14,821 bases of DNA from NCBI GenBank assembly GCA_016933575.1, contig JAFGAR010000010.1, positions 1 through 14,821 of the forward strand. Direction: 5' to 3'. Position numbers and translations under genes: made by a program. How positions within the stretch are numbered: position 1 is the stretch's first letter; every line of letters begins with the position of its first letter. This document shows positions 726 to 14,821 of this stretch, piece by piece. This stretch comes from Candidatus Thorarchaeota archaeon (GTDB lineage: Archaea; Asgardarchaeota; Thorarchaeia; Thorarchaeales; Thorarchaeaceae). The notes under the pieces were generated by a model. It ran no database searches. It saw only the letters and a list, made by a program, of their open reading frames with translations, and was not told the origin of the DNA.

Positions 726-2012
726 CTACTCATTCCTTAGTGCATCGACTGGCTGAAGATGTGCTGCTCGTCGAGCCGGATAGAGGGCGAACAAGACACT
801 CACGACGATACCGAAGAACAGGGCCATGAGTATCAGGTCTATCGTCAGTACGGGTGTGATAGTCCCAAGTGAACCCAATGGGTTTCCTCCTGATCCTACA
901 CTCATCCCTGTATTGAACCCTCCAAGTAGACCGGATAGAAGAAGTGCGATGACACCTCCAGTGATGATGCCGAACACGCCTCCAAAGATGCCGATCATCG
1001 TGGCTTCAGCCAGAAAGACTGCTAGAACTGTGCTTCCCTTCGCACCTAATGCTTTCAGGATCCCAATCTCTCGTGTCCGTTCCATGATGGATACGATCAT
1101 GATATTCATGATTCCTATCCCCGCGACTAGGAGCGAGATCGCAGCTATCCCACCGAGTAGCAGCTCAATGGTTCCTATCATCGTTGACAGCTGATCTAGG
1201 ATTGCTGTCGCAGAGGTCACTGTCACCTCGCCCTCAAAGAGCGCTCCAATCTCAGCTATCGCCAGATCGATAGTATCTTCAGAGTCGTCACTCAATTGGA
1301 CGATGATGGAGTTGACCTCGGTTGTTTCAAAGAAGTCCACCGCTGTAGACACTGGGAGATACACTCCCATATCACTCGGTCCACCTATCGAGCCACCTAT
1401 CTCATTCAAGATTCCCACCACCGTGACGGATATGTTCTTCTCGGTACGTAGTGTCCCATTGATGATGGTATATTTGATGAGGAACTCGTCACCGATATCA
1501 GCGAATAGGGTACCATTGTCCCATGGATCTGAAACAGAATCTCCTATGACCGCGTCATAGGCTCCTGGATCTGACGGAATCCCGCCACTCGCTGCCGTAA
1601 AGGTGCTACTGTAGATTTCTTGATAGGAATCAAAATCGATGCCAGTCACACTGAGAGACAATTCGTACTCGGTAGTATTTAGTACTGCTTGCTTGTTAAT
1701 GATGGGCGACACGTATTCCACATAAGAAAGCTCCTGAATAACTGCTGTATCATCCACGTAAAGCTTGAAATCTGAGGGCTCAGAAGCAGTCCCCGGTCTG
1801 AACGCGAAGCTCTGGGTGCTTACAGTCACAGTATCTGTGGAAAATCCCTCTGTGAACTGGTTCGTGATAGCTATCTCGAACCCTTGGGTATAAGACATCA
1901 GTGCGACGATAGCAGCGATCCCGATCACGATACCTAAGGTCGTGAGTCCTGAGCGGATCTTCCGAAGCCGAATGGCACCGAAGGAGTATGAGAAGATATC
2001 TCGCGTTCTCAT
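726..2012 (-). CDS. ABC transporter permease, MacB/FtsX (SalY/LolE-like) family
   Basis: N-terminal RSGLTTLGIVIGIAAIVAL, large extracytoplasmic domain, GIMNIM...ERTREIGILKALGA, and C-terminal YPARRAA.L.PVDALR. Confidence 0.95.
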   Translation of the reverse strand: MRTRDIFSYSFGAIRLRKIRSGLTTLGIVIGIAAIVALMSYTQGFEIAITNQFTEGFSTDTVTVSTQSFAFRPGTASEPSDFKLYVDDTAVIQELSYVEYVSPIINKQAVLNTTEYELSLSVTGIDFDSYQEIYSSTFTAASGGIPSDPGAYDAVIGDSVSDPWDNGTLFADIGDEFLIKYTIINGTLRTEKNISVTVVGILNEIGGSIGGPSDMGVYLPVSTAVDFFETTEVNSIIVQLSDDSEDTIDLAIAEIGALFEGEVTVTSATAILDQLSTMIGTIELLLGGIAAISLLVAGIGIMNIMIVSIMERTREIGILKALGAKGSTVLAVFLAEATMIGIFGGVFGIITGGVIALLLSGLLGGFNTGMSVGSGGNPLGSLGTITPVLTIDLILMALFFGIVVSVLFALYPARRAAHLQPVDALRNE

Positions 2013-2696
2013 CTATCGCACCTCGTCCTCTACTATCAGTCCATCCACTATGCGGACCTGCCTTCGTGCTGAAGCACCTACCTCTAGGTTATGGGTCACG
2101 ATGATGACCGTGACCCCCATCTCATGGTTCAGTCTGGTGACGAGGTCCATGATCTCTGCGGCTGTTCTGGTGTCTAGATTTCCAGTCGGCTCGTCCAGCA
2201 ACAGGAAGCTGGGTTCTGTGACCAATGCTCGTGCGACCGCTACTCGTTGGCGTTCACCTCCGCTGAGCTGCGAGGGTTTATGGTCCATTCGGCCATCTAA
2301 GCCCACTTTGCTGAGCATCTCTTCGGCTTGCCGCTCTCTTACTTCTTTGGGAACCCCAGCAATGACAAGTGGCAACTCAACATTGGCTCGCGCTGTCAAT
2401 CTGGGTACGAGATTGAAGAACTGGAACACGAACCCGACATGTCTGCGCGCTTCAGCTAGCTTGTTATCATCAAGCGTAGACACCTCTGTCCCACGGATCT
2501 TGATACTTCCCTTAGTCGGTCTATCCAAGGCTCCAATCATATTCAGCAATGTCGATTTCCCAGATCCTGAAGGCCCAACGATCGCAATGAACTCCCCTTG
2601 ATTCACATGCATGTCGACACCTCGCAGGGCGTTCACAGGGATCTCGCCTAAGTGATAGGTCTTCCTCAATCGTGTCAATTCTAGTACGGTACTCAT
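2013..2696 (-). CDS. ABC transporter ATP-binding protein (LolD/MacB-like)
   Basis: Walker A GPSGSGKS, signature LSGGERQR, Walker B LLLDEPTGNLD and H-loop VTH. The TAG stop abuts the permease ATG. The start is ATG 2696 or GTG 2705. Confidence 0.95.
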   Translation of the reverse strand: MSTVLELTRLRKTYHLGEIPVNALRGVDMHVNQGEFIAIVGPSGSGKSTLLNMIGALDRPTKGSIKIRGTEVSTLDDNKLAEARRHVGFVFQFFNLVPRLTARANVELPLVIAGVPKEVRERQAEEMLSKVGLDGRMDHKPSQLSGGERQRVAVARALVTEPSFLLLDEPTGNLDTRTAAEIMDLVTRLNHEMGVTVIIVTHNLEVGASARRQVRIVDGLIVEDEVR

Positions 2697-2882
2697 TGTT
2701 CTCACTTTTTCTAGAGGAGTACTTCCTCATGTTTGGTATGACCGCTTGGGAATTGCATATATGATTAGACCGAAGTTACGCCAGAGAATCTACCAGATGT
2801 CACCCGAATCCTCTCGATTTTTCGTCACATTTGAGACATGGGATAATCACTTATTACCTACAGGCAGTCATCTCAGGTACTG

Positions 2883-3188
2883 ATGATAACCAAGAGGCTC
2901 CTCTGGTGGTTGCTGGCAGGAACCAGAGGTGGTACCAATCGAGCTAGGATAATCATGGCGTTGCATGAGTTCCCATCAAACGCCAATTATCTAGCGGAGC
3001 AACTCAGCCTCGACTATAAGACGATTCGGCATCACATCGATGTCCTCGTGGAGCACGAGGTCCTGATTCCTCAAGGTGAGGGCTATGGCACGATTTACTT
3101 CGTGTCCGAGGACATCGAGAACAGCTTTGAGGAATTTGTAGCAATTTGGGAGAGAATTGGGAAAACAGGCTTAAAGAAAAAGAAATAG
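2883..3188 (+). CDS. Winged helix-turn-helix transcriptional regulator (archaeal ArsR-like)
   Basis: RLLWWLLAGTRGG.NRARII...P.NANYLAEQL.LDYKTIRHHIDVL...GYGTIYF is typical of archaeal ArsR-like wHTH proteins. It is divergent from the ABC genes. CTTATTA about 27 nt upstream suggests a leaderless transcript. Confidence 0.88.
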   Translation: MITKRLLWWLLAGTRGGTNRARIIMALHEFPSNANYLAEQLSLDYKTIRHHIDVLVEHEVLIPQGEGYGTIYFVSEDIENSFEEFVAIWERIGKTGLKKKK

Positions 3189-3197
3189 GAATGGTGT

Positions 3198-3629
3198 GTG
3201 CATATGAACAACAAAGAACTAATCGCACTTCTCATCACATGTATGGTGATTGCTGGGATGCTTGGCTATATCCTAGCGATATATCTGGTCCTCCCTCGCT
3301 TGGATTCCCCTTCACTCCCCCTTTTCATCCCTCCCCTAGAGGTCATTCATTTCTTTGTGACGATAAAGACCATCGTTTCACTCATCAACATGTCTCTCAT
3401 CTTCTTCACGCTCGCTATCTACATTGATATCTACCGATCGTTGAAAACCAGGTTCACCTTGGGACTTGTGACAATGTTGCTTCTCTTGCTCCTCTATGCC
3501 CTGACCTCGAATCCTATGGTTTTCTCACGATTCGGCTACCAATCGATAGGATTGGGTCCCTTCTCGATACTGCCCGACCTCTTCACGACAGTTGCGATGC
3601 TGATCCTCTTCTATCTAAGCCTGGAGTAG
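3198..3629 (+). CDS. Small integral membrane protein (about 4 TM), probably co-transcribed with the wHTH gene
   Basis: Four hydrophobic segments, starting 9-15 nt after the wHTH stop (GTG 3198 or ATG 3204). Its 3' end overlaps the convergent 981-aa gene by 15 nt. Confidence 0.85.
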   Translation: MHMNNKELIALLITCMVIAGMLGYILAIYLVLPRLDSPSLPLFIPPLEVIHFFVTIKTIVSLINMSLIFFTLAIYIDIYRSLKTRFTLGLVTMLLLLLLYALTSNPMVFSRFGYQSIGLGPFSILPDLFTTVAMLILFYLSLE

Positions 3630-6560
3630 CTCCTGAATCTTGGAGTGGATTCTCTCAACACGAATCTTCAGAGGGTCTCTCGAATTACCTAGATAGTCCT
3701 CGATCTTCGACAACCATTTGTCACACTCCAGTATACACTTGAAGAAGACATCTTCATTTTCCAGAGCTTTACCGATTGCTGGTAATTGCAGCATTACCTT
3801 CTCTAGCCAGTCTAGGTATCCCTTGTCCTTTCCAGTAGCATACACAAATTGTTTCGAGAAATCCCCTTCCCCAGTCAGGAAATCACACAGCATATCATAG
3901 GATGAGGAAAGATGATCGATGTCCTGAACTTTACTCTCATCCGCCAGATTTTGGACGAGTCGAAATGGCAAGCGATCCCCATTCTTCAGCATAGACGCAT
4001 AAGATGATAGAACTTTGATCAACGCATACGCACACTTCGTTTCCTTTACTAATATCTCCAAGAAACCGAGATTATTCCAAGTAGAGGGATCTGAGAACGA
4101 ATGGTCCTCGAATAGCATCTCTGTATTCTGTGTTTCAACCTCTTGTAGGGGGCGTAACCAATTGACCGCATATGCTAGAGGAGTAGGTTTCCCTTCATCA
4201 TCAATCAGACCGCTTTCTCTTGAGAACGATTGTGCTACTTCTTCAAACATCCGCTGTCTTAGAACAATGTCCAAAGTCATTGCTGGCAGGGGTGACAAGG
4301 TATTTGTACACTCTGCAAAAATCATATTCAATCCATTGACAGGACCTCGGATAAGCTGATTACTCCTTGTCAACATCACACAATAGTCAATAGGCGGTGT
4401 AGACTCCCTTTGACAGACCTTTGATACCTTCTCAAGAATCTCTCTGCTATCATCATTCAAGATAAAGGAGTTTCCTGAAGGGAGAAATGACTCTCGTACC
4501 CAAACAAATTCAACATTGGTAGAGCTATTTGGTTCTGATTCTACGAAGGATGCCATTTCTTGGAATCTGACCCGATTCCTCAATATCTCCCAGACATAGT
4601 GATAGTTCCTGTGTGTCAGGGTTTCCAGAAATACCTGCTCTCTAAGAGGATGATGAATAAGCATTAACCCTCTTTGCTCGTCCTTTGTCACTAATCGCGT
4701 GAAGTAGTGCATATTATTTCGCTTGATTATCCATGCCCCAGCACCTGTTGCTGCCCAGACAAGTGTACCTGACTCGGTCACCGATTCAGTCCTTCTGGTT
4801 TCCGAAAGGACCTGCTCTCCTTCTCCTAATCCTAGTTGAGGTATATCAACAGTAAAAGACGCTCTATGCATGCCAGGTTGAATCCCCTCTTGTATTGTGA
4901 TAGGTATCTGGACTTTGCTTGCTAAATGCGCCTGAATTTTCTTTTTGACGTCATCAGAGATGCTGTCCAATCCTAGCAGTCCCGATGTAGCCAAGGTTTG
5001 GGATCCTATGATGGAATCGACTCTCATCTTAGTAAAAAGATGACATGAAGGGCTCACTGTTGTCAGATGTTGTGCTGTTTGTCCCAAGACATTCAATCCG
5101 AGCAAGACTAATGAGATTCTTTTGGGATCGGATAACACATCAGGCTGAATTCCCCTTTGGATTGCTACTTGCCGCTTGATGAAAGCTTCCAACAGCAACC
5201 TGATATTGCTTGGGTCCTCAATAGTAAGGATATTTCCATCTATGGCAGTTTGGAATAGGTCACCCAACAGGAGCCTTTGTATCCGATCCAGATTTTCTGA
5301 AGTCTGTACATTGTCGATGATTTGAATGTTCTTGGGTTCTTCAATTCCGTGCACTAGATAGCCTTCAATGTTTATTGCTGTTGGGGCTAGTGCTGGCTCT
5401 GGATGCTTGTTTTCATAGAGGTTGAATGTGAAATCAGTGGTATGTGGAATCTCAAAGATATTACCTTTCATCGAAGCTCGTTCCATACCATTGGCGCGTG
5501 TGTTCTCTGCTGATGACGTAGATATTGATTCGAAGAAGTTCCTTGATGCAGCATCCTTCCACTGAAGACTCCATATGTCTTTGCTTATCCTTTCGATGTT
5601 TCTTTCTTCGATTTTGAAGTCGTACTGTTTGTCTGTAGATCGTACAATACTGGCAATTGACTCTCTACTGACAATGGATGGAATTGTGATTCTTCTCTTT
5701 TCATCATGATGACTCTCGATTAGTCTAGTCAAAGTCTTGACGAATCTATCTACGTTACCATTCTTGTAGTCTCTAGATACGATACCTTTCTCCAATAGTA
5801 CGATTGGGCTGATCCATCTGCTATTCAACCTATGCAGAATCCTCTTTCCGAGAGAGAATAATCGATCTTTATCTATGCGATAGGTGATAATCTCAATCTC
5901 TTCATTGGTAAATGGAAACTCCAATCCCTTTGGAAAGGGTAGTTCGTTCTTAGCTATAGGAATTGGGTATTCAAGGATGCTTGATGGTGCTTGTGTTGAC
6001 TGTCTCATTCGTGTTTCAATCAATCTCACATAATTGGTGAGGAAGATCAGTTCCCAAATGGTGAGGCCAAGATGTTCTCGTAGTATCCCGATCGGTGTTC
6101 TCTCTTGGACGAATCTGTTTAAGATGGCCCTTCTGAACCAAGCGAATCTTGGTCGTTCATTGGAGATGCTGCTGAGGAATGTCCTGAAGTCCTTTGATTC
6201 ACTATCTGATTTGAGCTGGATGTAGCTGCTATGACCGAGGAGTTCAGCAATCCTTGATACATCCCGATTGAGTTTATCCTCAAATGCACTCGTATCCATT
6301 GCCCATAGAACATGGACTATCAAATAGATGAAACCAACATAGACAAAGAGCCCTATTATGGGAATCATAACTAGGCTTGTAGTTCCTGATAGCGGGACGA
6401 TTCCCAATATAGGAAGAGTACTCAGATAATTGCTGATGAAGATGGCCAAATCTGGATAGAAAACAAAAGTCACAAGCAAAGAGAGATACACACCAAAAAT
6501 GACCTTTCCTTCAAGTAGAGAGTCACTCGTCCAACGTCTAAACCTGCTATGGTAAGTCAT
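3615..6560 (-). CDS. Large hypothetical protein (981 aa) with N-terminal transmembrane helices
   Basis: Uninterrupted 2.9-kb ORF with two, possibly three, hydrophobic segments in residues ~20-87 and GAGGG upstream of the ATG. No family recognised. Confidence 0.85.
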   Translation of the reverse strand: MTYHSRFRRWTSDSLLEGKVIFGVYLSLLVTFVFYPDLAIFISNYLSTLPILGIVPLSGTTSLVMIPIIGLFVYVGFIYLIVHVLWAMDTSAFEDKLNRDVSRIAELLGHSSYIQLKSDSESKDFRTFLSSISNERPRFAWFRRAILNRFVQERTPIGILREHLGLTIWELIFLTNYVRLIETRMRQSTQAPSSILEYPIPIAKNELPFPKGLEFPFTNEEIEIITYRIDKDRLFSLGKRILHRLNSRWISPIVLLEKGIVSRDYKNGNVDRFVKTLTRLIESHHDEKRRITIPSIVSRESIASIVRSTDKQYDFKIEERNIERISKDIWSLQWKDAASRNFFESISTSSAENTRANGMERASMKGNIFEIPHTTDFTFNLYENKHPEPALAPTAINIEGYLVHGIEEPKNIQIIDNVQTSENLDRIQRLLLGDLFQTAIDGNILTIEDPSNIRLLLEAFIKRQVAIQRGIQPDVLSDPKRISLVLLGLNVLGQTAQHLTTVSPSCHLFTKMRVDSIIGSQTLATSGLLGLDSISDDVKKKIQAHLASKVQIPITIQEGIQPGMHRASFTVDIPQLGLGEGEQVLSETRRTESVTESGTLVWAATGAGAWIIKRNNMHYFTRLVTKDEQRGLMLIHHPLREQVFLETLTHRNYHYVWEILRNRVRFQEMASFVESEPNSSTNVEFVWVRESFLPSGNSFILNDDSREILEKVSKVCQRESTPPIDYCVMLTRSNQLIRGPVNGLNMIFAECTNTLSPLPAMTLDIVLRQRMFEEVAQSFSRESGLIDDEGKPTPLAYAVNWLRPLQEVETQNTEMLFEDHSFSDPSTWNNLGFLEILVKETKCAYALIKVLSSYASMLKNGDRLPFRLVQNLADESKVQDIDHLSSSYDMLCDFLTGEGDFSKQFVYATGKDKGYLDWLEKVMLQLPAIGKALENEDVFFKCILECDKWLSKIEDYLGNSRDPLKIRVERIHSKIQELLQA

Positions 6561-6625
6561 ACCAATCCCTCGCCAACGCGAGCTCTCTACAATCGATGCG
6601 ACTAATTAATGATTAGGGTCTTTAT

Positions 6626-7387
6626 TCAATCGTTTCGTCTTTTAGCAATCAGCAGCTCTAATGCCAAAATTAGATGATCTGTTGCAGGTGTATCTTCACG
6701 TCCATCTATGTGCCCCTTTGAGAGAACCTCTCTAATCGCAGATGATTCGATATCCACTTTTAGCAACTCTGAGTGTTCTGGCGCTTCTATCTCAATCTCA
6801 CTAGCCTCGACATTCACTGGGGCATGTATAACGCAGGTCGTATCATGATTACTCCCCCAGACCAGTCCAAGCATGGTGAAGTCACCTTTTGTGAAATTAT
6901 CAGACTTGAGAGTTGTTTCTTCAGTGATCTCTCGTGCGGAAGTATCAACCGGATTCTCAGGAATATAGGTTCCCTCCGGACTTGGGAGGGGGTCTATGAA
7001 CCCACCCCCTACTGCATGGAGTGTATTTCCTTGGTCACTTCCTTTTCTGATTCCGAGAATTATCTTGTCATCCTGAGTATGGATAAGAGTAGTAGCGCTG
7101 AGGGGATTAGGATATTCATCATGTGTCTGGTACGTCTGGTGCCTGAGCACAAAATGCCATCTGTAGGTACATAGACTCACTCTTAGCTTCAAACGATTCT
7201 GTATGAGGTTATAGCCTTCATATCTCCAAAGTGGAAGATCCTGAGCATCAAAAGGCTTTCTTAGCCACTCTGCTTCAACGAGTGTTTTCTGTTCGAGAGT
7301 GGGCTGAAGAGTACCCGGAACTGATTCAATATCGATTTCTGATGGATTCCACAAACCCCTCAGAAGAATGACCCTTTCCACTCTCAC
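6626..7387 (-). CDS. Nudix hydrolase, NUDT22-like
   Basis: Nudix box variant GGFIDP-[insert]-ENPVDTSAREITEETTL, preceded by NPLSATTLIHTQDDKIILGIR. RBS GGTAGGTG precedes the GTG start. Confidence 0.82.
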   Translation of the reverse strand: MRVERVILLRGLWNPSEIDIESVPGTLQPTLEQKTLVEAEWLRKPFDAQDLPLWRYEGYNLIQNRLKLRVSLCTYRWHFVLRHQTYQTHDEYPNPLSATTLIHTQDDKIILGIRKGSDQGNTLHAVGGGFIDPLPSPEGTYIPENPVDTSAREITEETTLKSDNFTKGDFTMLGLVWGSNHDTTCVIHAPVNVEASEIEIEAPEHSELLKVDIESSAIREVLSKGHIDGREDTPATDHLILALELLIAKRRND

Positions 7388-7543
7388 ATTTTCACCTACC
7401 TATCGCACCTTCCCATTCTATTTAGAATTAGTGGCTGTTTTTATATGTCCTATTGATTGCCTATTCTGAAGTGTGTTATACATTCTGCAACAAGCTTAAC
7501 ACTGACGCTGCTGTTTCCTTCCCGTCTGTCCTAAACTCAGTCC

Positions 7544-8896
7544 TCATACGTTTGATGATCTTATTCTAAATCGCAAGATGAGGATTAAGAATAGAGCTAT
7601 GCATCCTACTGATGCCACTGTGACTACTATCGATATCACTCCAAAATCGAATTCATTACCTTCGGTTGGAGTGGGTTGCGTTGAGGTGAGTTGTGTTGGT
7701 GTGCTTACTTGCTGTTCAGGATAGTTATCTACTGCTCCCGCAGGGCCATCGATTAAGTACGTTCCAGTTCCTGAATAATCTCCCCAGCTATTACCAGTCG
7801 ATATCCTATCATCCCATGCATTCCATAGGCCCTCCTGTGTTTGATCATCATAGGCTTCTCCTTGGCGATTTTTCGCTACTCTATTCCCGTAGATATCACA
7901 AAGCGCTGCGTTTGTCATATACACTCCATATTTCTCATTCCAAAAGATATCATTGTTCTTAACTTCGACTCTCGAAGCTCCATCTATCATGACGCCATGC
8001 CCCTCGTTATTATGGATGAGATTCCCTTCAATAGTAGCGAGATCTGATTCTGCAAGAATACCGTTTCCTGAATTATTGTAGATGCTATTGTCTAAGATCT
8101 GGATTCCCTCTGAATCAAGAGCCCGAATGCCATGTCCGGTATCTGAGGACGCTGTAGAAGGTCCGACATGGTGGACCGTGTTCTCAGTAACCGTGACAGA
8201 ATCAGATGATTCGATGAAGATGCCTTCGTGCTTTGCGTTCCAGATAGTATTCCCATCAATCTCCATCCTCTCAGATTCCCTGCAGTATATTCCTTGTTGA
8301 TGGAACGCATCATAGATCGTATTGTTCTGTACCGTCCATCTATCACATAGCCACAAATTTATGCCGATTTGATCCATCTCCCAGATGATGTTGTCCTCAG
8401 CGATGCAATTGCTAGAATCTATAGAGTTGATGCCTTTTGACGCCCATTTGATTCTACTATCTCTAATGCTGCAGTATTGAGACCATGCAAAGGTAGCTCC
8501 GTACCCATCGACATGAATATCACAATCATCAATTTCCACATTTTTTGCATAGGCCAGATGTATACCTGTTGCAGTTCCACCATAGAATGTCTGTATGATG
8601 CAATGTCGAATTATACAATACACATCAGTAGTGTAGATTCTGATGCCATAGCCCCCATGTCCTGTTATGTTCAACCATTCGATGATGTAGGGGTTACTCT
8701 CTGTACCGCTCCCCAGCCATCCTTGTGTTGCGAAGTCTGTATTGCTCTCAATGAGAATATCTTCATGCTCGATATAGCTTTGTGCTAGATGTATATCAGT
8801 AGAGGATAGATGGATTCCCATTTCTTCAGTTACTCCCATACCAACAAAGCCGAGTAAGAGCACCAGTAAAACTATCATGAATCTATTCGCGCCCAA
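7544..8896 (-). CDS. Membrane-anchored right-handed parallel beta-helix protein (NosD/CASH-like)
   Basis: Signal peptide, HEDILIESNTDFATQGW.GSGT..NPYII cap, repeated GIxx...IxxNxIxxN coils, N.WDD...GNSWGDYSG.G.Y.IDG...VDNYP end, Thr/Pro linker, then a C-terminal TM with basic tail. Confidence 0.9.
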   Translation of the reverse strand: MGANRFMIVLLVLLLGFVGMGVTEEMGIHLSSTDIHLAQSYIEHEDILIESNTDFATQGWLGSGTESNPYIIEWLNITGHGGYGIRIYTTDVYCIIRHCIIQTFYGGTATGIHLAYAKNVEIDDCDIHVDGYGATFAWSQYCSIRDSRIKWASKGINSIDSSNCIAEDNIIWEMDQIGINLWLCDRWTVQNNTIYDAFHQQGIYCRESERMEIDGNTIWNAKHEGIFIESSDSVTVTENTVHHVGPSTASSDTGHGIRALDSEGIQILDNSIYNNSGNGILAESDLATIEGNLIHNNEGHGVMIDGASRVEVKNNDIFWNEKYGVYMTNAALCDIYGNRVAKNRQGEAYDDQTQEGLWNAWDDRISTGNSWGDYSGTGTYLIDGPAGAVDNYPEQQVSTPTQLTSTQPTPTEGNEFDFGVISIVVTVASVGCIALFLILILRFRIRSSNV

Positions 8897-9120
8897 ACCT
8901 ATTCATCCCCAATCTCACTGGTGACAAACTTCCTAATGAAGCTTTTAGAAGTAGTGGCTAAGAATGCCAATTGGGGGAAGTTGCCATTAGCTGATAATCA
9001 GGGCTGGATCCACACTATGTAGAATAAATGGCATTACAATAGAGGACAATGTTTCTCAAATTCAATCGGAAAGTCCTGAAAGCAAGTGAATATATACAAC
9101 CTCTTGAATGTGACTCTTAC

Positions 9121-9166
9121 AAAAGTTATACGAATATTTGTCCTATTCCAATAATCTATTAGAATA
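9121..9166 (+). promoter_or_regulatory. Putative promoter plus inverted-repeat operator upstream of the ferritin-like gene
   Basis: AAAAGTTATAC (BRE/TATA-like, 9121-9131) followed by TATTCCAATA-ATC-TATTAGAATA (9144-9166), whose arms match 9 of 10 as an inverted repeat. Confidence 0.5.
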
Positions 9167-9202
9167 TCGACGAACATTCCATAACTTGAGGTGGATTTAG
9201 AA

Positions 9203-9700
9203 ATGGGAAAACGAGGAAGAGAGATTGTAAAACTTGACGTGGATGAGCTGCTCGAACTGCTTAACAAGGCATTCGCTGATGAGTGGCTTGCTTACTACCA
9301 ATATTGGATTGGTGCCAAGGTAGCAGTGGGCCCCATGCGAGGAGCAGTCGTCGCAGAACTAATCGAGCATGCAATGGAGGAGCTCAAGCATGCGGGTATG
9401 TTGACCGAGAGGATCATTCAGCTTGGAGGTACTCCTCTCCTGAAGCCCAGTGATTGGGACAAGCACACCAACTGTGGGTATGAAGCCCCCTCAGATCCTT
9501 CTGTCAAGAAGCTGATCGAGCAGAACATAGAGGCCGAGCGTTGTGCGATCGATGTCTATAACAAGCTGGTCGAGATGACGAAGGATAAGGATCCTATCAC
9601 CTATCATATCGTGCTAGAGATCCTCGAGGACGAGGTGGAGCATGAGGAGGATCTTCAGGCTCTGCATGAAGATATGATGGCCACAAAGAGCATGTTCTAG
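9203..9700 (+). CDS. Ferritin-like protein, DPSL (Dps-like/thioferritin) type
   Basis: Four-helix di-iron ligands ADEWLAYYQY, EELKH, EAERCAI..Y and EDEVEH, plus RIIQLGG.P and the DPSL-type Cys pair (NCGY, ERC). GAGGTGG precedes the ATG at 9203, so the track's GTG 9191 start lies within the RBS. Confidence 0.9.
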   Translation: MGKRGREIVKLDVDELLELLNKAFADEWLAYYQYWIGAKVAVGPMRGAVVAELIEHAMEELKHAGMLTERIIQLGGTPLLKPSDWDKHTNCGYEAPSDPSVKKLIEQNIEAERCAIDVYNKLVEMTKDKDPITYHIVLEILEDEVEHEEDLQALHEDMMATKSMF

Positions 9701-9801
9701 TTTGGCATGTCTTCATCTAACAAGAGATATCTCTCTGATTGATTCTTCTGACAAAGAGAGAAAATCGAGGGCAATCACAGAGGATTGCCCTACGCTATTT
9801 T

Positions 9802-10152
9802 TCAGGAATATGGCTTTCTAATTGGCGGCAAAATCATGATGAAGACGATCAGTACCGCGAACGTAATTGGGAATGCCATCAGCACTGGGTCTGGCAATAG
9901 CAGTATTGCCAATGGTATTGTGATGATGTTGAGGATTATGGCGTACAACCATCCCTCCTTTCGTATTGGCTTGAGGTACATCCATGCAACAAGCATAAGC
10001 GCCAATCCAACTACTACTGGAATAAGCGCAAGGGCACCTATCACCATCAATCCATATAGCGAAAAGAGTGTCAGGAAAGCACCATATCCGATGTTCAAAC
10101 CGAAGAGTATCAACGGAGCTACTTTCTCAAATTCTGCAGATTCAGATGTCAA
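9802..10152 (-). CDS. Small hypothetical membrane protein (about 4 TM)
   Basis: Almost entirely hydrophobic 116-aa ORF with AGGTG upstream of the TTG start. It is convergent with the DPSL gene. Confidence 0.75.
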   Translation of the reverse strand: MTSESAEFEKVAPLILFGLNIGYGAFLTLFSLYGLMVIGALALIPVVVGLALMLVAWMYLKPIRKEGWLYAIILNIITIPLAILLLPDPVLMAFPITFAVLIVFIMILPPIRKPYS

Positions 10153-10412
10153 TTTGTGAACACCTACACTGAAATCCCATCACACATCCAAGTTGCATGC
10201 TGAATTTCGTTCATTGGCAAGAATATACTCCCTCTTTAGTCTGCCGAATCAAATGTCAATTTCTGATCGCTCAGTGATTGCTAATGGCCAGATTCTCTAT
10301 TTCATCGATACTAATAGAAATAATACTATTCAATCAATCAAAAATCACAATATATAGCTAATTAAAATATGACTTCGCGAATTATCTATCCTTTTTGAGG
10401 GAGCGATGTCAA

Positions 10413-12209
10413 ATGAGAAGGATGGTTCGAAAGGTACGACTTCTCCTACTCTGTTCTCTATTGATGGGCACACTTGCTGCATTCCCACCTATGGTTGTGG
10501 AGGTCAGTGCCTATACAGGAAATCATGATGAAACGTTCATAGATGGCTCGTTCATCGATGAGTCCGTTTCCAATATCACGGGAATTGGGTCTGGAGCGAT
10601 TTCGCTTCCGCACCGTGAATTTGATTTGCAGGGATACGAATACATGTCAGGAGGTGGGTCTGAACTTGATATTGTGGGCAACCTTGCGTATATCATCGAC
10701 TACAAGACACTATACATCTACAATATATCTGAAGTAACATCTCCTGATCTGCTTAGTACAACAACAATAACAGCTACATCAGCCTATGCGGATATGGATA
10801 TCGTCGGCGGTTTATTATTCATTCCTACTGAGAGCGGACTGTCCATATACAATATCTCGAATCCTGCATTGCCAACACTTACGAAAAAATACGATCTGGG
10901 TAATCGAAGCTATCAGGTAATCGTAGAGAATGATGTTGCATTTGTAGCATGCTATAGGGAGGGAATCAAGATTCTCAATGTTTCAGATCCTGAAGCAGTT
11001 ATATCGATTGCGAATTATACCTACATGGTTGATAAGGCATACGCTCTGGATTTGCATGGTACCACCTTGTATCTGGGAGAGGAAACCGGATTCCAAATCA
11101 TAGATGTCAGTGATATCTACAATCCCTCTCAAATCTCACAGGTCGCTACAGCTATTGGTGCCGCCTCTGTCCTGGCTGTTGGGAATCTATTTGCGTTCCG
11201 CGCCTCCCAACAAGTATGCCTTTTCGACATCTCAAATCCTGCATCTCCTGAAAGCATATCTAATGTTACTGGCAATTACCACTGCTTCGATATCATCTCC
11301 AATATGCTATTCCGTGCCCAAGATGTGTTTGATATAGTCAATATCACAATCCCCGAACATCCTGTGAAGATCTTCCAGCATCAACGGATTGAAGGCTACG
11401 GACCATACAGGGACTTTGTCTTCACAAATGAGTTCATTTGCTTCACGGGTGACTCTGCCGTGATTGAGATCTATCGATGCAGGAATGTCACAGAGTACTG
11501 GTATCAATATGAGCCGTTCGCAGTAGTCCAATCTGACCCTCTCTTCGAAACATATAACGAGGACGACATTATAGTGGATGTCACACTCCAAGTCGATGCA
11601 TACATCCCAGCTAGCACCTCCATCGTCTACTACGCCTCAGCACGAAATGGGTCGTATTGGAATGAGGTCCTTCCTGATGTGAAGTATAATTTCTATGCTC
11701 GAGGTGAGCAGTTGAAGTGGCGCGCAGAACTCCATAGCTCGAGCTATTCCACATCACCAATTATCTACTCTATCAATATGACCTGCACAGCGCATATTCC
11801 ATCTCCTGAACTGGACGAGCCTTTGTCAGATACGACCCTTGACACGAACACACCATCCTTTGATTGGTACAGTCTCGAGTTCGCAGTGGCTTACCTCTTG
11901 CAGCTCGACACGACCGTGTCATTTGACTCAGAGGACCTCGTGAACCTAACGCTCACAGCATCCGAATATCTAGTCACAGAATCTTTGGATGATGGAAAAT
12001 GGTATTGGCGAGTTGCAGGAATCGATGAGACCGGACAAGTAGGTGAGTTCGCACCGACACGTGCCTTCACCATCAATACTGGCGCAGGTACAGGGACCAG
12101 CACAGGAACCACGTTGCTTCCGCCTGATTTCATGACATACGCAATCATTGGTGGTGTGCTCATTGCTGCTGTTGTGATAGCAGTAGCTGTGAAACGAAGG
12201 AAGAAATAG
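10413..12209 (+). CDS. Secreted, C-terminally anchored LVIVD-repeat (beta-propeller) surface protein with a FN3-like domain
   Basis: Signal peptide; repeats YIYNISEVTSP, SIYNISNPALP, KILNVSDPEA, QIIDVSDIYNP, LFDISNPASP and DIVNITIPEHP; FN3-like TPSFDW...YLLQLD...DGKWYWRVAGID; Gly/Thr linker; TM plus KRRKK. ATG 10413 follows GAGGGAG. Confidence 0.88.
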   Translation: MRRMVRKVRLLLLCSLLMGTLAAFPPMVVEVSAYTGNHDETFIDGSFIDESVSNITGIGSGAISLPHREFDLQGYEYMSGGGSELDIVGNLAYIIDYKTLYIYNISEVTSPDLLSTTTITATSAYADMDIVGGLLFIPTESGLSIYNISNPALPTLTKKYDLGNRSYQVIVENDVAFVACYREGIKILNVSDPEAVISIANYTYMVDKAYALDLHGTTLYLGEETGFQIIDVSDIYNPSQISQVATAIGAASVLAVGNLFAFRASQQVCLFDISNPASPESISNVTGNYHCFDIISNMLFRAQDVFDIVNITIPEHPVKIFQHQRIEGYGPYRDFVFTNEFICFTGDSAVIEIYRCRNVTEYWYQYEPFAVVQSDPLFETYNEDDIIVDVTLQVDAYIPASTSIVYYASARNGSYWNEVLPDVKYNFYARGEQLKWRAELHSSSYSTSPIIYSINMTCTAHIPSPELDEPLSDTTLDTNTPSFDWYSLEFAVAYLLQLDTTVSFDSEDLVNLTLTASEYLVTESLDDGKWYWRVAGIDETGQVGEFAPTRAFTINTGAGTGTSTGTTLLPPDFMTYAIIGGVLIAAVVIAVAVKRRKK

Positions 12210-12323: not shown

Positions 12324-12629
12324 ATGCAACTAGAATCCTTGCTAAGTCCTGATGTGTGGCTTATGGCATTCCTGTCCGGTTTTGTGCCTCTAGCCTTTAT
12401 TCTGCTAGTGATCTACAAAGCCTGTACTGCGCGTGCAACAACCGGAGGGTATGCTCGAACACTACCCCGTCCGGTTGATGGCTCCGGTCCGATCTCAGCA
12501 GCCCAAGGGGCAGCTATGTCCTATTTTCCAAATGATACATGTACGTCCACAGGAGCCTTTCCAATAAGCGGTATGGGGCCTTCAGGAAAGGGCGGCTATG
12601 GCTTTCGGCCACATAATAAGGATGAATAG
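12324..12629 (+). CDS. Small single-TM protein with Gly/Pro/Ser/Thr-rich tail
   Basis: One hydrophobic helix at residues ~12-31 followed by a low-complexity tail. GAAGGTTG lies upstream of the ATG. Confidence 0.6.
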   Translation: MQLESLLSPDVWLMAFLSGFVPLAFILLVIYKACTARATTGGYARTLPRPVDGSGPISAAQGAAMSYFPNDTCTSTGAFPISGMGPSGKGGYGFRPHNKDE

Positions 12630-12697: not shown

Positions 12698-12846
12698 ACC
12701 CTAATTTTACCTTTATCTTCATCCGCCGTCTAGGACTAACTCGTCAATTGTGCAATTACGCTTTGCCAATCCCCTTGATTTGAGAAAAGAATATTTCTAG
12801 TTGCAGTTTTTATGGGTGCATTTTCAAGTAATATTGAGGGCTTGTG

Positions 12847-14358
12847 ATGGCTTCTGAGAAATCAAAGATTGTTGCTTTCAAAGGAATACGTTCTGGTTCT
12901 GAAGTCGAATTGAAGATTGCGAAAAGTGCTACAATACTATGGTTAAATGACAATAGTCTTTCATCTATAGACCTTGATGACATTAGCGAGTTCAATAATA
13001 TTGAGCGAATCTATCTCGAAAATAATTTCCTTTATAATGTGGATTTGTCACCACTCAAGAATAGCTCAAGTTTGAAATGGATAAACATCTCAAATAACGA
13101 GCTTCAGAAAATAGATTTACAGCCACTAGCTTCATGTAAAAGTCTGGCAATTCTTGAACTCGCTTCTAACAAATTAGATGATTTGGACCTATCACCACTG
13201 AGTGAATGCATGGGACTCTCCACGCTCGTACTTTCAGACAATAATCTTCGTGATATTGACTTATCTCCATTGAGAAGGTGTACTAATCTTCAACATATCC
13301 ATCTATCAGGAAACAATCTTGAGGGAGTGGATTTGGAACCTTTGCGGGGATGTAAAGGACTTCAAAATCTGTTCTTGGATAGAAATCAAATCGGTTATCT
13401 CAATCTTTCTCATATCGAATCAGCGAATCTAATTCAGTTGAACTTATCTCGAAATAAAATAGCAGAAATTGATCTAAGTCCTCTAAAATCTGGTGGCTAT
13501 CTGGCAGTAATTGATCTATCGCACAACAACATCAAAAAATTAGATCTCTCTCCTCTTTCCGATAATTCACACATCTGGAAATTGTCACTAATTGGCAATC
13601 CTCTTCCATATCTGGATTTATCTCCAGTCGCACAAAGCTGGTCGGGGAGTTCTTGGTCCCGATCCAAGGTCGTTATTCAACCTCATGATGCAACATACTA
13701 TCAGAACGAGGACGAGAGAGGGAATATTCTCTTGCAAGTAGAAGCGAACACAATATTAGTGATAGATCCCTTTCTAAAGGAAATATTGACATCGAATGAG
13801 AGATATGGATTTTCCCAGGTCATGGATAGGATATCTTGGATTTTAGGTCCTGATCTTGCTGAGAAGATATACAACGATGATGGTTGGCAAGGTGTAAAGA
13901 AGCGTTTGGAGATGCTGCCTAAGAATATCGCACTAAGTGCTCTCTCGATGACTGAATTGGCAGGACTTGAAAAGCCACTAGAAGATGTAACAAATGCGAT
14001 CGAAGAGAACATGTCATTCTCAGAAGGGTTGTATACAGCGTATATGAAGGCGGTCGAACTCCTTGAAAAGCAACTTGAAAGGAATGATTCAACTCACGAG
14101 CTGGATGTTGCAAGAATGAAGGAAACAGTCGCTGCAAGATTGATTCCGAAGATTCTTGAACTTAGAAAGCAGGAACTCAATAGAATTGAACTGAAAAGGG
14201 ATTCAGAAGGGTATATCTCGCTGGAAGAGCTAAAGGGGACCTACTATGGTAGACTGATCTTGGATAAGCTGGGTATCGGTTGGCGCATGAAATCTGAGGA
14301 CCTTGAGGTTTTGAAGTCAACTTTTAGGGAATTGGGACTTGAAATCAAAGGTTCGTAG
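12847..14358 (+). CDS. Leucine-rich repeat protein (about 10 x 24-aa LRR) with an unassigned helical C-terminal domain
   Basis: Consensus LxxLxLxxNxLxxIDLSPLxxCxx, e.g. LSTLVLSDNNLRDIDLSPLRRCTN. No signal peptide or TM is evident. Confidence 0.92.
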   Translation: MASEKSKIVAFKGIRSGSEVELKIAKSATILWLNDNSLSSIDLDDISEFNNIERIYLENNFLYNVDLSPLKNSSSLKWINISNNELQKIDLQPLASCKSLAILELASNKLDDLDLSPLSECMGLSTLVLSDNNLRDIDLSPLRRCTNLQHIHLSGNNLEGVDLEPLRGCKGLQNLFLDRNQIGYLNLSHIESANLIQLNLSRNKIAEIDLSPLKSGGYLAVIDLSHNNIKKLDLSPLSDNSHIWKLSLIGNPLPYLDLSPVAQSWSGSSWSRSKVVIQPHDATYYQNEDERGNILLQVEANTILVIDPFLKEILTSNERYGFSQVMDRISWILGPDLAEKIYNDDGWQGVKKRLEMLPKNIALSALSMTELAGLEKPLEDVTNAIEENMSFSEGLYTAYMKAVELLEKQLERNDSTHELDVARMKETVAARLIPKILELRKQELNRIELKRDSEGYISLEELKGTYYGRLILDKLGIGWRMKSEDLEVLKSTFRELGLEIKGS

Positions 14359-14416: not shown

Positions 14417-14782
14417 ATGAAGATAAGAACCGATTTCATTACTAATAGTAGCTCTTCTTTGTATCTAATCAAGAATATCACTTCCCAAACAAAAAATCTC
14501 TGGGATCTAATGCAAGAGGCTGCAGGGGGTCCCTGGGAACTGGTTGATTGGGGAGAATACCGTGATGAGGATTGGGATGGAGAAAATCCTCGACAGCTGC
14601 CAGGTGATGATCCTGAGATTCTACAAAGATTTCGAGAAGCTGTGTCAAAGACACGCACATTTCCTCCTAACTCACAACAAGAAATGTGGATTGCTTGGGG
14701 AGATGGAGGTCCAATCTTTTGTCCAAATGGATTGCGCGTTGGACGAACCAAGAGTTTCCACATTGAATATATCGATGGGTAG
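14417..14782 (+). CDS. Hypothetical protein with N-terminal MKIRTDFITNSSSS motif
   Basis: 121-aa ORF with a GGGTGGTG RBS and TTTTAATA TATA-like box at ~14361. Its N-terminus is shared with the next gene. Confidence 0.85.
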   Translation: MKIRTDFITNSSSSLYLIKNITSQTKNLWDLMQEAAGGPWELVDWGEYRDEDWDGENPRQLPGDDPEILQRFREAVSKTRTFPPNSQQEMWIAWGDGGPIFCPNGLRVGRTKSFHIEYIDG

Positions 14783-14789
14783 GAAAGAC

Positions 14790-14821
14790 ATGAAATTAAG
14801 AAATGACTTTGTTACGAATAG
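14790..14821 (+). CDS. Second motif-bearing gene (MKLRNDFVTN[S]...), truncated by window end
   Basis: ATG AAA TTA AGA AAT GAC TTT GTT ACG AAT AG, starting 7 nt after the previous stop. 7 of the first 10 residues are identical to the upstream protein. Confidence 0.8.
   Translation, partial: MKLRNDFVTN

Follow-up and report, generated by a model that had tools for sequence, protein, structure and literature searches.

Radical-SAM/SPASM enzymes are mostly known for producing small modified peptides, and few of them, anSME being one example, act on whole proteins. Their SPASM domain (PF13186) is Cys-rich, lies at the C-terminus and binds one or two extra 4Fe-4S clusters. In leader-dependent maturases the conserved piece of the substrate is usually the handle and not the altered site, and the Ser or Cys that is modified by anSME/AtsB belongs to a short motif close to the N-terminus of full-size sulfatases. 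Here, we analysed a window of 14,821 nucleotides (the whole stretch of DNA under study) from a genome bin of a Candidatus Thorarchaeota archaeon. The window probably ends inside a copy of a widespread two-part system, in which a radical-SAM enzyme is accompanied by client proteins that bear an 18-residue N-terminal tag as recognition handle. A literature search with motif strings and keywords found no published description of such a tag-enzyme system.

The RiPP maturases SuiB/StrB (streptide), SkfB, CteB and PqqE come closest to the enzyme of this system. Its AlphaFold2 model is nearest to SuiB (TM 0.72), SkfB, CteB and anSME (TM 0.59, rmsd 4.4), and it has weak profile matches to solved chains, with PqqE, SkfB, SuiB and anSME as the related ones. 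As in RiPP maturation, one enzyme stands beside several substrates that have a conserved N-terminal piece in common. Unlike there, the clients are not short precursor peptides but whole proteins, which reach 846 aa and have LRR or BRCT domains, the barrel is preceded by a short beta-sheet and not by an RRE-type domain, and the loci have no protease or transporter in common; the combination of short precursor, RRE and leader peptidase or exporter that identifies a RiPP precursor and maturase cluster is absent. With anSME/AtsB the enzyme shares its radical-SAM/SPASM architecture, and the tag is Ser-rich, but the tag is without (C/S)xPxR and the clients are without a sulfatase domain. Moreover, the sequence relation to anSME is confined to the SPASM part (E about 1e-3), the enzyme branch found in the source genome of the window probably has one auxiliary cluster, and no anSME model is among the NCBIfam matches, which places the enzyme outside the anSME/AtsB group.

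In conflict systems, radical-SAM/SPASM enzymes have been described next to variable proteins that carry a short conserved motif, which is C-terminal there (Kaur et al., 2020; PMC7159879). The FxSxx-COOH/FxsB systems and the three-residue cyclophane (triceptide) synthases resemble the present system in their aromatic-x-Ser/Thr type of motif, to which F7-V8-T9 of the tag corresponds. Their motif, however, belongs to a C-terminal piece that is processed by a peptidase, whereas the tag sits at the exact N-terminus, no peptidase is common to the loci and a cyclophane would be hypothetical. The capsid-targeting sequence of phage T4 is likewise a short N-terminal tag on otherwise unrelated phage proteins, but it is removed by the prohead protease and is without a radical-SAM partner, and the tag described here also occurs in cellular chromosomes. 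A glycyl-radical enzyme and its activase would be indicated by an invariant Gly in a C-terminal RVxG; the tag is N-terminal, and its only Gly is found at position 6, where it alternates with Asp.

The genes that concern us lie at the right end of the window, all on the forward strand:

12324 to 12629, forward strand: predicted membrane protein of 101 aa upstream of the cassette, compared by tblastn and blastn within the genome; possibly a flank of the system.
12844 to 14358, forward strand: leucine-rich repeat (LRR) protein of 504 aa (GTG at 12844, ATG at 12847; Pfam LRR_8, 3e-24).
14417 to 14782, forward strand: gene 1, encoding the tagged protein P0001 of 121 aa (stop codon TAG at 14780 to 14782).
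14417 to 14470, forward strand: the 18-residue N-terminal tag of gene 1, MKIRTDFITNSSSSLYLI, delimited by information content and the AlphaFold2 model.
14783 to 14789, forward strand: spacer of 7 nt (gaaagac), an operon-like packing read directly from the sequence.
14790 to 14821, forward strand: 5' end of gene 2 (MKLRNDFVTN plus AG), cut at the contig end after 10 codons.

Gene 1 starts with atg aag ata aga acc gat ttc att act aat agt agc tct tct, i.e. MKIRTDFITNSSSS, and gene 2 with atg aaa tta aga aat gac ttt gtt acg aat ag, i.e. MKLRNDFVTN followed by AG, the opening of a Ser or Arg codon. The start common to both genes reads MK[IL]Rx-DF[IV]TN, with 7 of 10 residues and 22 of the first 30 nucleotides identical. 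A reading of the sequence agrees exactly with the first-pass annotation, which had reported two adjacent genes 7 nt apart with the same N-terminal motif and different codons for four of the six identical non-Met residues (aag/aaa, gat/gac, ttc/ttt and act/acg). Its proposal that selection acts on the peptide is borne out as well: the codons differ, and the tag is retained on bodies which otherwise have nothing in common.

The window is a complete contig (C22), and the reading of gene 2 therefore ends at 14821. A continuation was searched for at the other contig ends of the genome, by frame or by overlap with the last 12-31 bases, and none was found. The one public DNA run with the stretch yielded a single unitig of 112 bases (14695 to 14806) that had no loose end and no bridge, and no public RNA run is listed as containing the stretch. 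Gene 2 is probably a second paralog of gene 1, since in the related locus L070 the gene 1 homolog is followed by a second tagged paralog that starts with MKRRNDFVTNSSSAAFLVRN. The possibility that gene 2 represents the start of the enzyme itself was rejected, as none of the related radical-SAM enzymes begins with the tag.

Judged by its sequence, P0001 belongs to a small uncharacterised family. It has no match in Pfam or NCBIfam, and its sole match in PHROG is weak and N-terminal (phrog_7397, E 0.26). A HMMER search of 1.84 billion representatives returned 19 homologs of about 120 aa each, and MKxRx[GD]F[VI]TNSS stands at or near the N-terminus in 16 of the 16 that retain this end; further conserved positions of the family include N20, K26, D30, E34 and W40. 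Other searches with P0001 returned only itself (word-indexed search), weak matches without the motif (relatives of the source genome), other branches (metagenome scan) or nothing usable (tblastn against cultured phages, where a zinc-ribbon-type tagged protein fared likewise). P0001 is predicted by AlphaFold2 to form a small alpha/beta domain (pLDDT 86), for which Foldseek found no PDB match with E < 1. In a wide VIA structure search the best Z was 3.0 (ferredoxin-like or RRM-type chains); there is no clear solved relative, and an Atlas search gave unnamed viral clusters with scores below 0.9. Residues 1-10 of the model have a pLDDT below 50 and strand 1 spans residues 13-20, which suggests that the first half of the motif is a free tail and not a core strand. 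The first-pass annotation would have been contradicted by ordinary paralogs of a characterised family whose first core strand is the motif; the family is uncharacterised, and residues 1-10 are predicted to lie outside the core.

To delimit the tag, one genome per species was scanned with the pattern MK[ILF]Rx[GD]F[VI]TN, and viral contigs and metagenomes were included as further collections. Across these three collections the tag, with the 18-residue consensus MK[IVF]RxDFVTNSSSSS[FY][IVL][IVL], is present on more than 180 ORFs of 43-846 aa (median 170 aa in the genome and viral sets). Together with the presence of the motif in all gene 1 homologs that retain their N-terminus, this takes the match between genes 1 and 2 beyond chance. 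The genomes gave 55 loci, the viral contigs 28 and the metagenomes 37. The genomes are mostly gut and rumen Clostridia, along with Desulfobacterales, Bacteroidales, Coriobacteriales, Synergistaceae and Gastranaerophilales, and include two cultured strains; cultured carriers are Anaerotignum lactatifermentans DSM 14214 (L034) and Lacrimispora amygdalina (L030). The first-pass annotation had suggested that such starts recur in clustered proteins of bacteria and large phages, and this proved accurate: as many as 10 tagged genes can stand in one array, and a viral contig of 504 kb contains one of the loci. Ten consecutive tagged genes are found in a Gastranaerophilales MAG (L015); the stretch 6859-9881 of the viral contig (L078) comprises the enzyme gene and, after it, four tagged genes.

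Information content was determined for 100 non-redundant tagged proteins whose bodies after the tag have less than 40% ungapped identity to one another. It is near the maximum for residues 1-16, remains elevated at 17 and 18 and has dropped to background by residue 19; the tag positions are partly fixed by the search patterns, with K2, D6, T9, S11-S15 and the aromatic residue 16 free or loosely set. The comparison of what follows the motif, which had been suggested from the first reading, thus shows that the bodies are unrelated and that conservation ends at residue 18. The tagged proteins are not explained by any Pfam, NCBIfam or PHROG family. Among ten long bacterial tagged proteins, Pfam detects LRR_5 repeats in six and BRCT domains in three. 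These fusions of the tag with BRCT or LRR modules, which are encoded by separate genes in the window branch, support a functional connection of the tagged protein with its LRR neighbour.

The second part of the system emerged from the neighbours of the tagged genes. For the linkage counts, loci were picked by the tag alone. Of the 55 genome loci, 46 have a gene of the same radical-SAM/SPASM family next to the tagged genes, as do 27 of the 28 viral loci and 24 of the 37 loci from metagenomes, the last set containing many short contigs; the family matches by phmmer have E-values from 1e-9 and mostly between 1e-40 and 1e-58. In five of five genomes in which no enzyme lies within 10 kb of the tagged locus, it is encoded elsewhere (71-85% identity). 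When the ORFs of 76 loci with a clear enzyme copy were clustered, the enzyme and the tagged genes were all that these loci have in common, and no common protease, transporter or regulator was found among them. The two-part system is distributed over phages, gut and sediment bacteria and the archaeal bin. Gene linkage and conservation provide good support for the inference that the tag is the piece recognised by the enzyme.

The loci of the closest relatives resemble the end of the window. A Radical_SAM/SPASM gene directly follows the tagged gene in L010, L011 and L069, and in L010 and L011 the tagged gene is preceded by a (BRCT-)LRR protein; L011 contains four pairs of LRR and tagged genes with a single enzyme. 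The gene upstream of the tagged gene is represented by its 3' end only in L069 and L070, and the L070 remnant resembles the C-terminus of the LRR protein in the window. In L071 (4229-7869), and likewise in L072 and L073, an LRR gene of 905 aa with one tagged gene on either side is located between uvrA and uvrC, and the flanks within 10 kb of these LRR and tagged genes contain no radical-SAM gene.

The bin to which the window belongs comprises 215 contigs and is 85.5% complete with an estimated contamination of 6.9%. It contains ribosomal protein S8e and is archaeal; the archaeal assignment of C22 itself rests on binning alone, in a bin with this level of contamination and with a variant copy of the contig, C129. 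This contig of 5092 bases is an 81-94% identical variant of blocks 1-742, 3601-7435 and 9070-9546 of C22 and is without the ABC transporter genes (743-3600) and the NosD-like gene (7436-9069). Two strains in the bin or a segmental duplication may be behind C129. The source genome has a single enzyme ortholog, which is situated at the end of contig C74 and is 67% identical to the family member P0022. The reverse complement of C74 begins exactly at CSNGCSFCY, so that the enzyme is cut at its CxxxCxxC motif. C22 is likely followed by a gap, in which the remainder of gene 2 and some 57 codons of the enzyme would be located, and then by C74, with a junction that is inferred and not assembled. From the first reading it had been suggested that a partner enzyme may be encoded downstream, with a radical SAM enzyme among the types named; such a gene is found directly downstream in the closest relatives and on C74 in the source genome. 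The source genome accordingly contains what defines the system, MK[IVLF]Rx[DG]F[VI]TNSS and an enzyme ortholog that is usually adjacent: gene 1 has the full tag, gene 2 has the first 10 tag residues and the ortholog is on C74, their adjacency being deduced across the assembly gap. Neither the P0001 family nor the enzyme was detected in 40 relatives of the source genome, 24 congeners included; the pair comes and goes together.

The enzyme belongs to the Radical SAM superfamily (PF04055; 41.8 bits for P0021 and 52.2 bits for P0022, cut-off 29.5) and carries a SPASM domain (PF13186; 23.2 and 29.5 bits, cut-off 21.5), and none of the curated NCBIfam maturase models comes near its cut-off for either protein. 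Two branches can be distinguished. The window branch has the canonical CxxxCxxC, with which the C74 fragment starts as CSNGCSFCY. The gut and phage branch, which comprises most bacterial and viral loci (for example L015:6788-7852), has GHCxHGxxGLCxKAGxxCYQ, a C-x7-C-x6-C arrangement, instead; of its three members scored against PF04055, two are under the cut-off (28.1 bits; no match) and the third reaches 31.3 bits. A full CxxCx5Cx3C SPASM tail is present in the bacterial branch. P0022 has C142, C240, C264, C282 and C322 as its only Cys residues after the cluster motif (the window branch has about five), and this small number of C-terminal Cys suggests that the window branch probably has a single auxiliary, twitch-like cluster. 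The AlphaFold2 model of the enzyme (pLDDT 86) places a four-strand N-terminal sheet of about 45 residues ahead of the barrel. A complex prediction of the enzyme (A3) and the tagged protein (A4) with SAM and two clusters gave a score of 0.11 (mark 0.32) and is given no weight for or against the proposal below. Full-length homologs of the enzyme are also encoded by T4-like enterobacterial phages (172 records), such as RB16 (L074, 5932-7086) and Matisse (L104, 3941-5086), with 25-28% identity (27-28% in these two). RB16 and Matisse have no tagged gene within 4-6 kb of the enzyme homolog and no F[VI]TN-Ser-Ser-Ser coding pattern genome-wide.

The LRR protein upstream of gene 1 has a conserved non-LRR C-terminal region besides its repeats. 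Its homology to the LRR proteins encoded ahead of tagged genes in L010, L011 (four copies) and L071 extends over the whole length, up to residue ~501, and this sequence relationship supports its assignment as the upstream partner of the tagged small protein. The window protein has no BRCT domain, which is present in the L010 protein and in the first L011 protein. Upstream of the LRR gene, the 101-aa membrane protein has a 47.5%-identical paralog directly after the radical-SAM gene of C74 (reverse complement 1129-1434), and the pair brackets the cassette; about 288 bases, made up of the 3' part of the gene and the following stretch, are 65% identical in DNA. The remaining neighbours in the window, namely a NosD-like beta-helix protein (7544-8896, reverse strand), a ferritin-like protein (9191-9700, forward strand) and an LVIVD-repeat protein (10395-12209, forward strand), show no link to the cassette. 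For a 981-aa ORF on the reverse strand (3615-6560), neither Pfam nor 30 relatives gave a match, and C129 carries a copy with 85% identity.

We propose that the system works as follows. The genes would be ordered as LRR protein, tagged 121-aa protein, second tagged protein, assembly gap and radical-SAM enzyme on C74. The first 10 residues of the tag would be a flexible free tail that, together with the Ser-rich turn into strand 1, would act as the handle for every client. Via SAM cleavage the enzyme would abstract a hydrogen atom and leave a covalent change within about residues 7-25, at or next to the tag, such as oxidation of Ser or Thr, a crosslink (of the cyclophane or another type) or epimerisation of a residue. 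The chances that the enzyme makes a covalent change at this place are about even. The invariant residues F7, T9, N10, S11 and S12 are possible candidates for modification. As the conserved piece of a maturase substrate usually serves as handle, conservation alone does not imply that the modified residue lies inside the tag, and with the whole small domain conserved in the P0001 branch (N20, K26, D30, W40 and others) the modified site could be in the body. The client of the window branch would be one small domain that acts with the adjacent LRR protein, and bacteria would have the same combination, the tag and BRCT and/or LRR, in one chain. A more far-reaching version, in which the covalent mark is installed in the universal N-terminal tag to mature or arm families of LRR/BRCT-linked sensors or effectors as well as small phage proteins and serves as a new post-translational mark in host-virus conflict, is tentative, and we lean against it.

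The linkage of tag and enzyme suits a docking peptide equally well as a substrate. The main rival to the proposal is therefore an adaptor role, in which the tag would only dock proteins on the enzyme, the variable bodies (LRR, BRCT and small acidic domains) would choose third-party proteins or nucleic acids for modification and the tagged proteins themselves would stay unaltered. The bodies that can be named are indeed binding modules, LRR and BRCT, and 1-10 different tagged proteins accompany each enzyme. However, many tagged bodies are tiny (43-120 aa) and have no recognisable binding fold, and the known SPASM/twitch enzymes nearest in fold act on the very peptide or protein that bears the recognition piece; on balance we regard adaptors as unlikely. 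The position of the tag at the exact N-terminus, its frequency in large phages and its flexibility in the model would also fit a sorting signal for phage packaging, export or degradation, perhaps removed at the Asn-Ser bond, with a radical-SAM gene that co-travels for another reason. Such a signal leaves the near-complete two-way travel with one enzyme family unexplained, and the tag occurs in chromosomal loci of the archaeal bin and of cultured anaerobes that have no virion genes nearby, and a protease or transporter common to the loci is absent, all of which makes this explanation quite improbable.

The tandem gene of L070 is, like gene 1, a full-length paralog within one small family, as would be expected if the motif were nothing but the first core strand of that family, or a signal at the DNA or RNA level, with no special role. 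Against this, the same 18 residues are found on about 100 bodies with less than 40% ungapped identity, conservation stops at residue 18, residues 1-10 lie outside the core in the model and the synonymous codons differ between the two genes; we give this explanation hardly any weight. The preferred reading hence remains that of a radical-SAM enzyme with clients that it recognises by their tag.

Through a single 18-residue tag, very many unrelated proteins of full size appear to be served by one enzyme family. A modified tag would constitute a protein mark that is both new and very common; a tag that is only used for docking would be a natural, portable means of recruiting a radical enzyme. Either outcome would be useful for enzymology and for the understanding of many small phage proteins. 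The window branch adds an enzyme with CxxxCxxC, a single small client family and a fixed LRR partner. Owing to its textbook CxxxCxxC motif the enzyme of this branch should be easier to study, and the fixed LRR partner of its client, which is fused to the tag in bacteria, points to a role in sensing or conflict.
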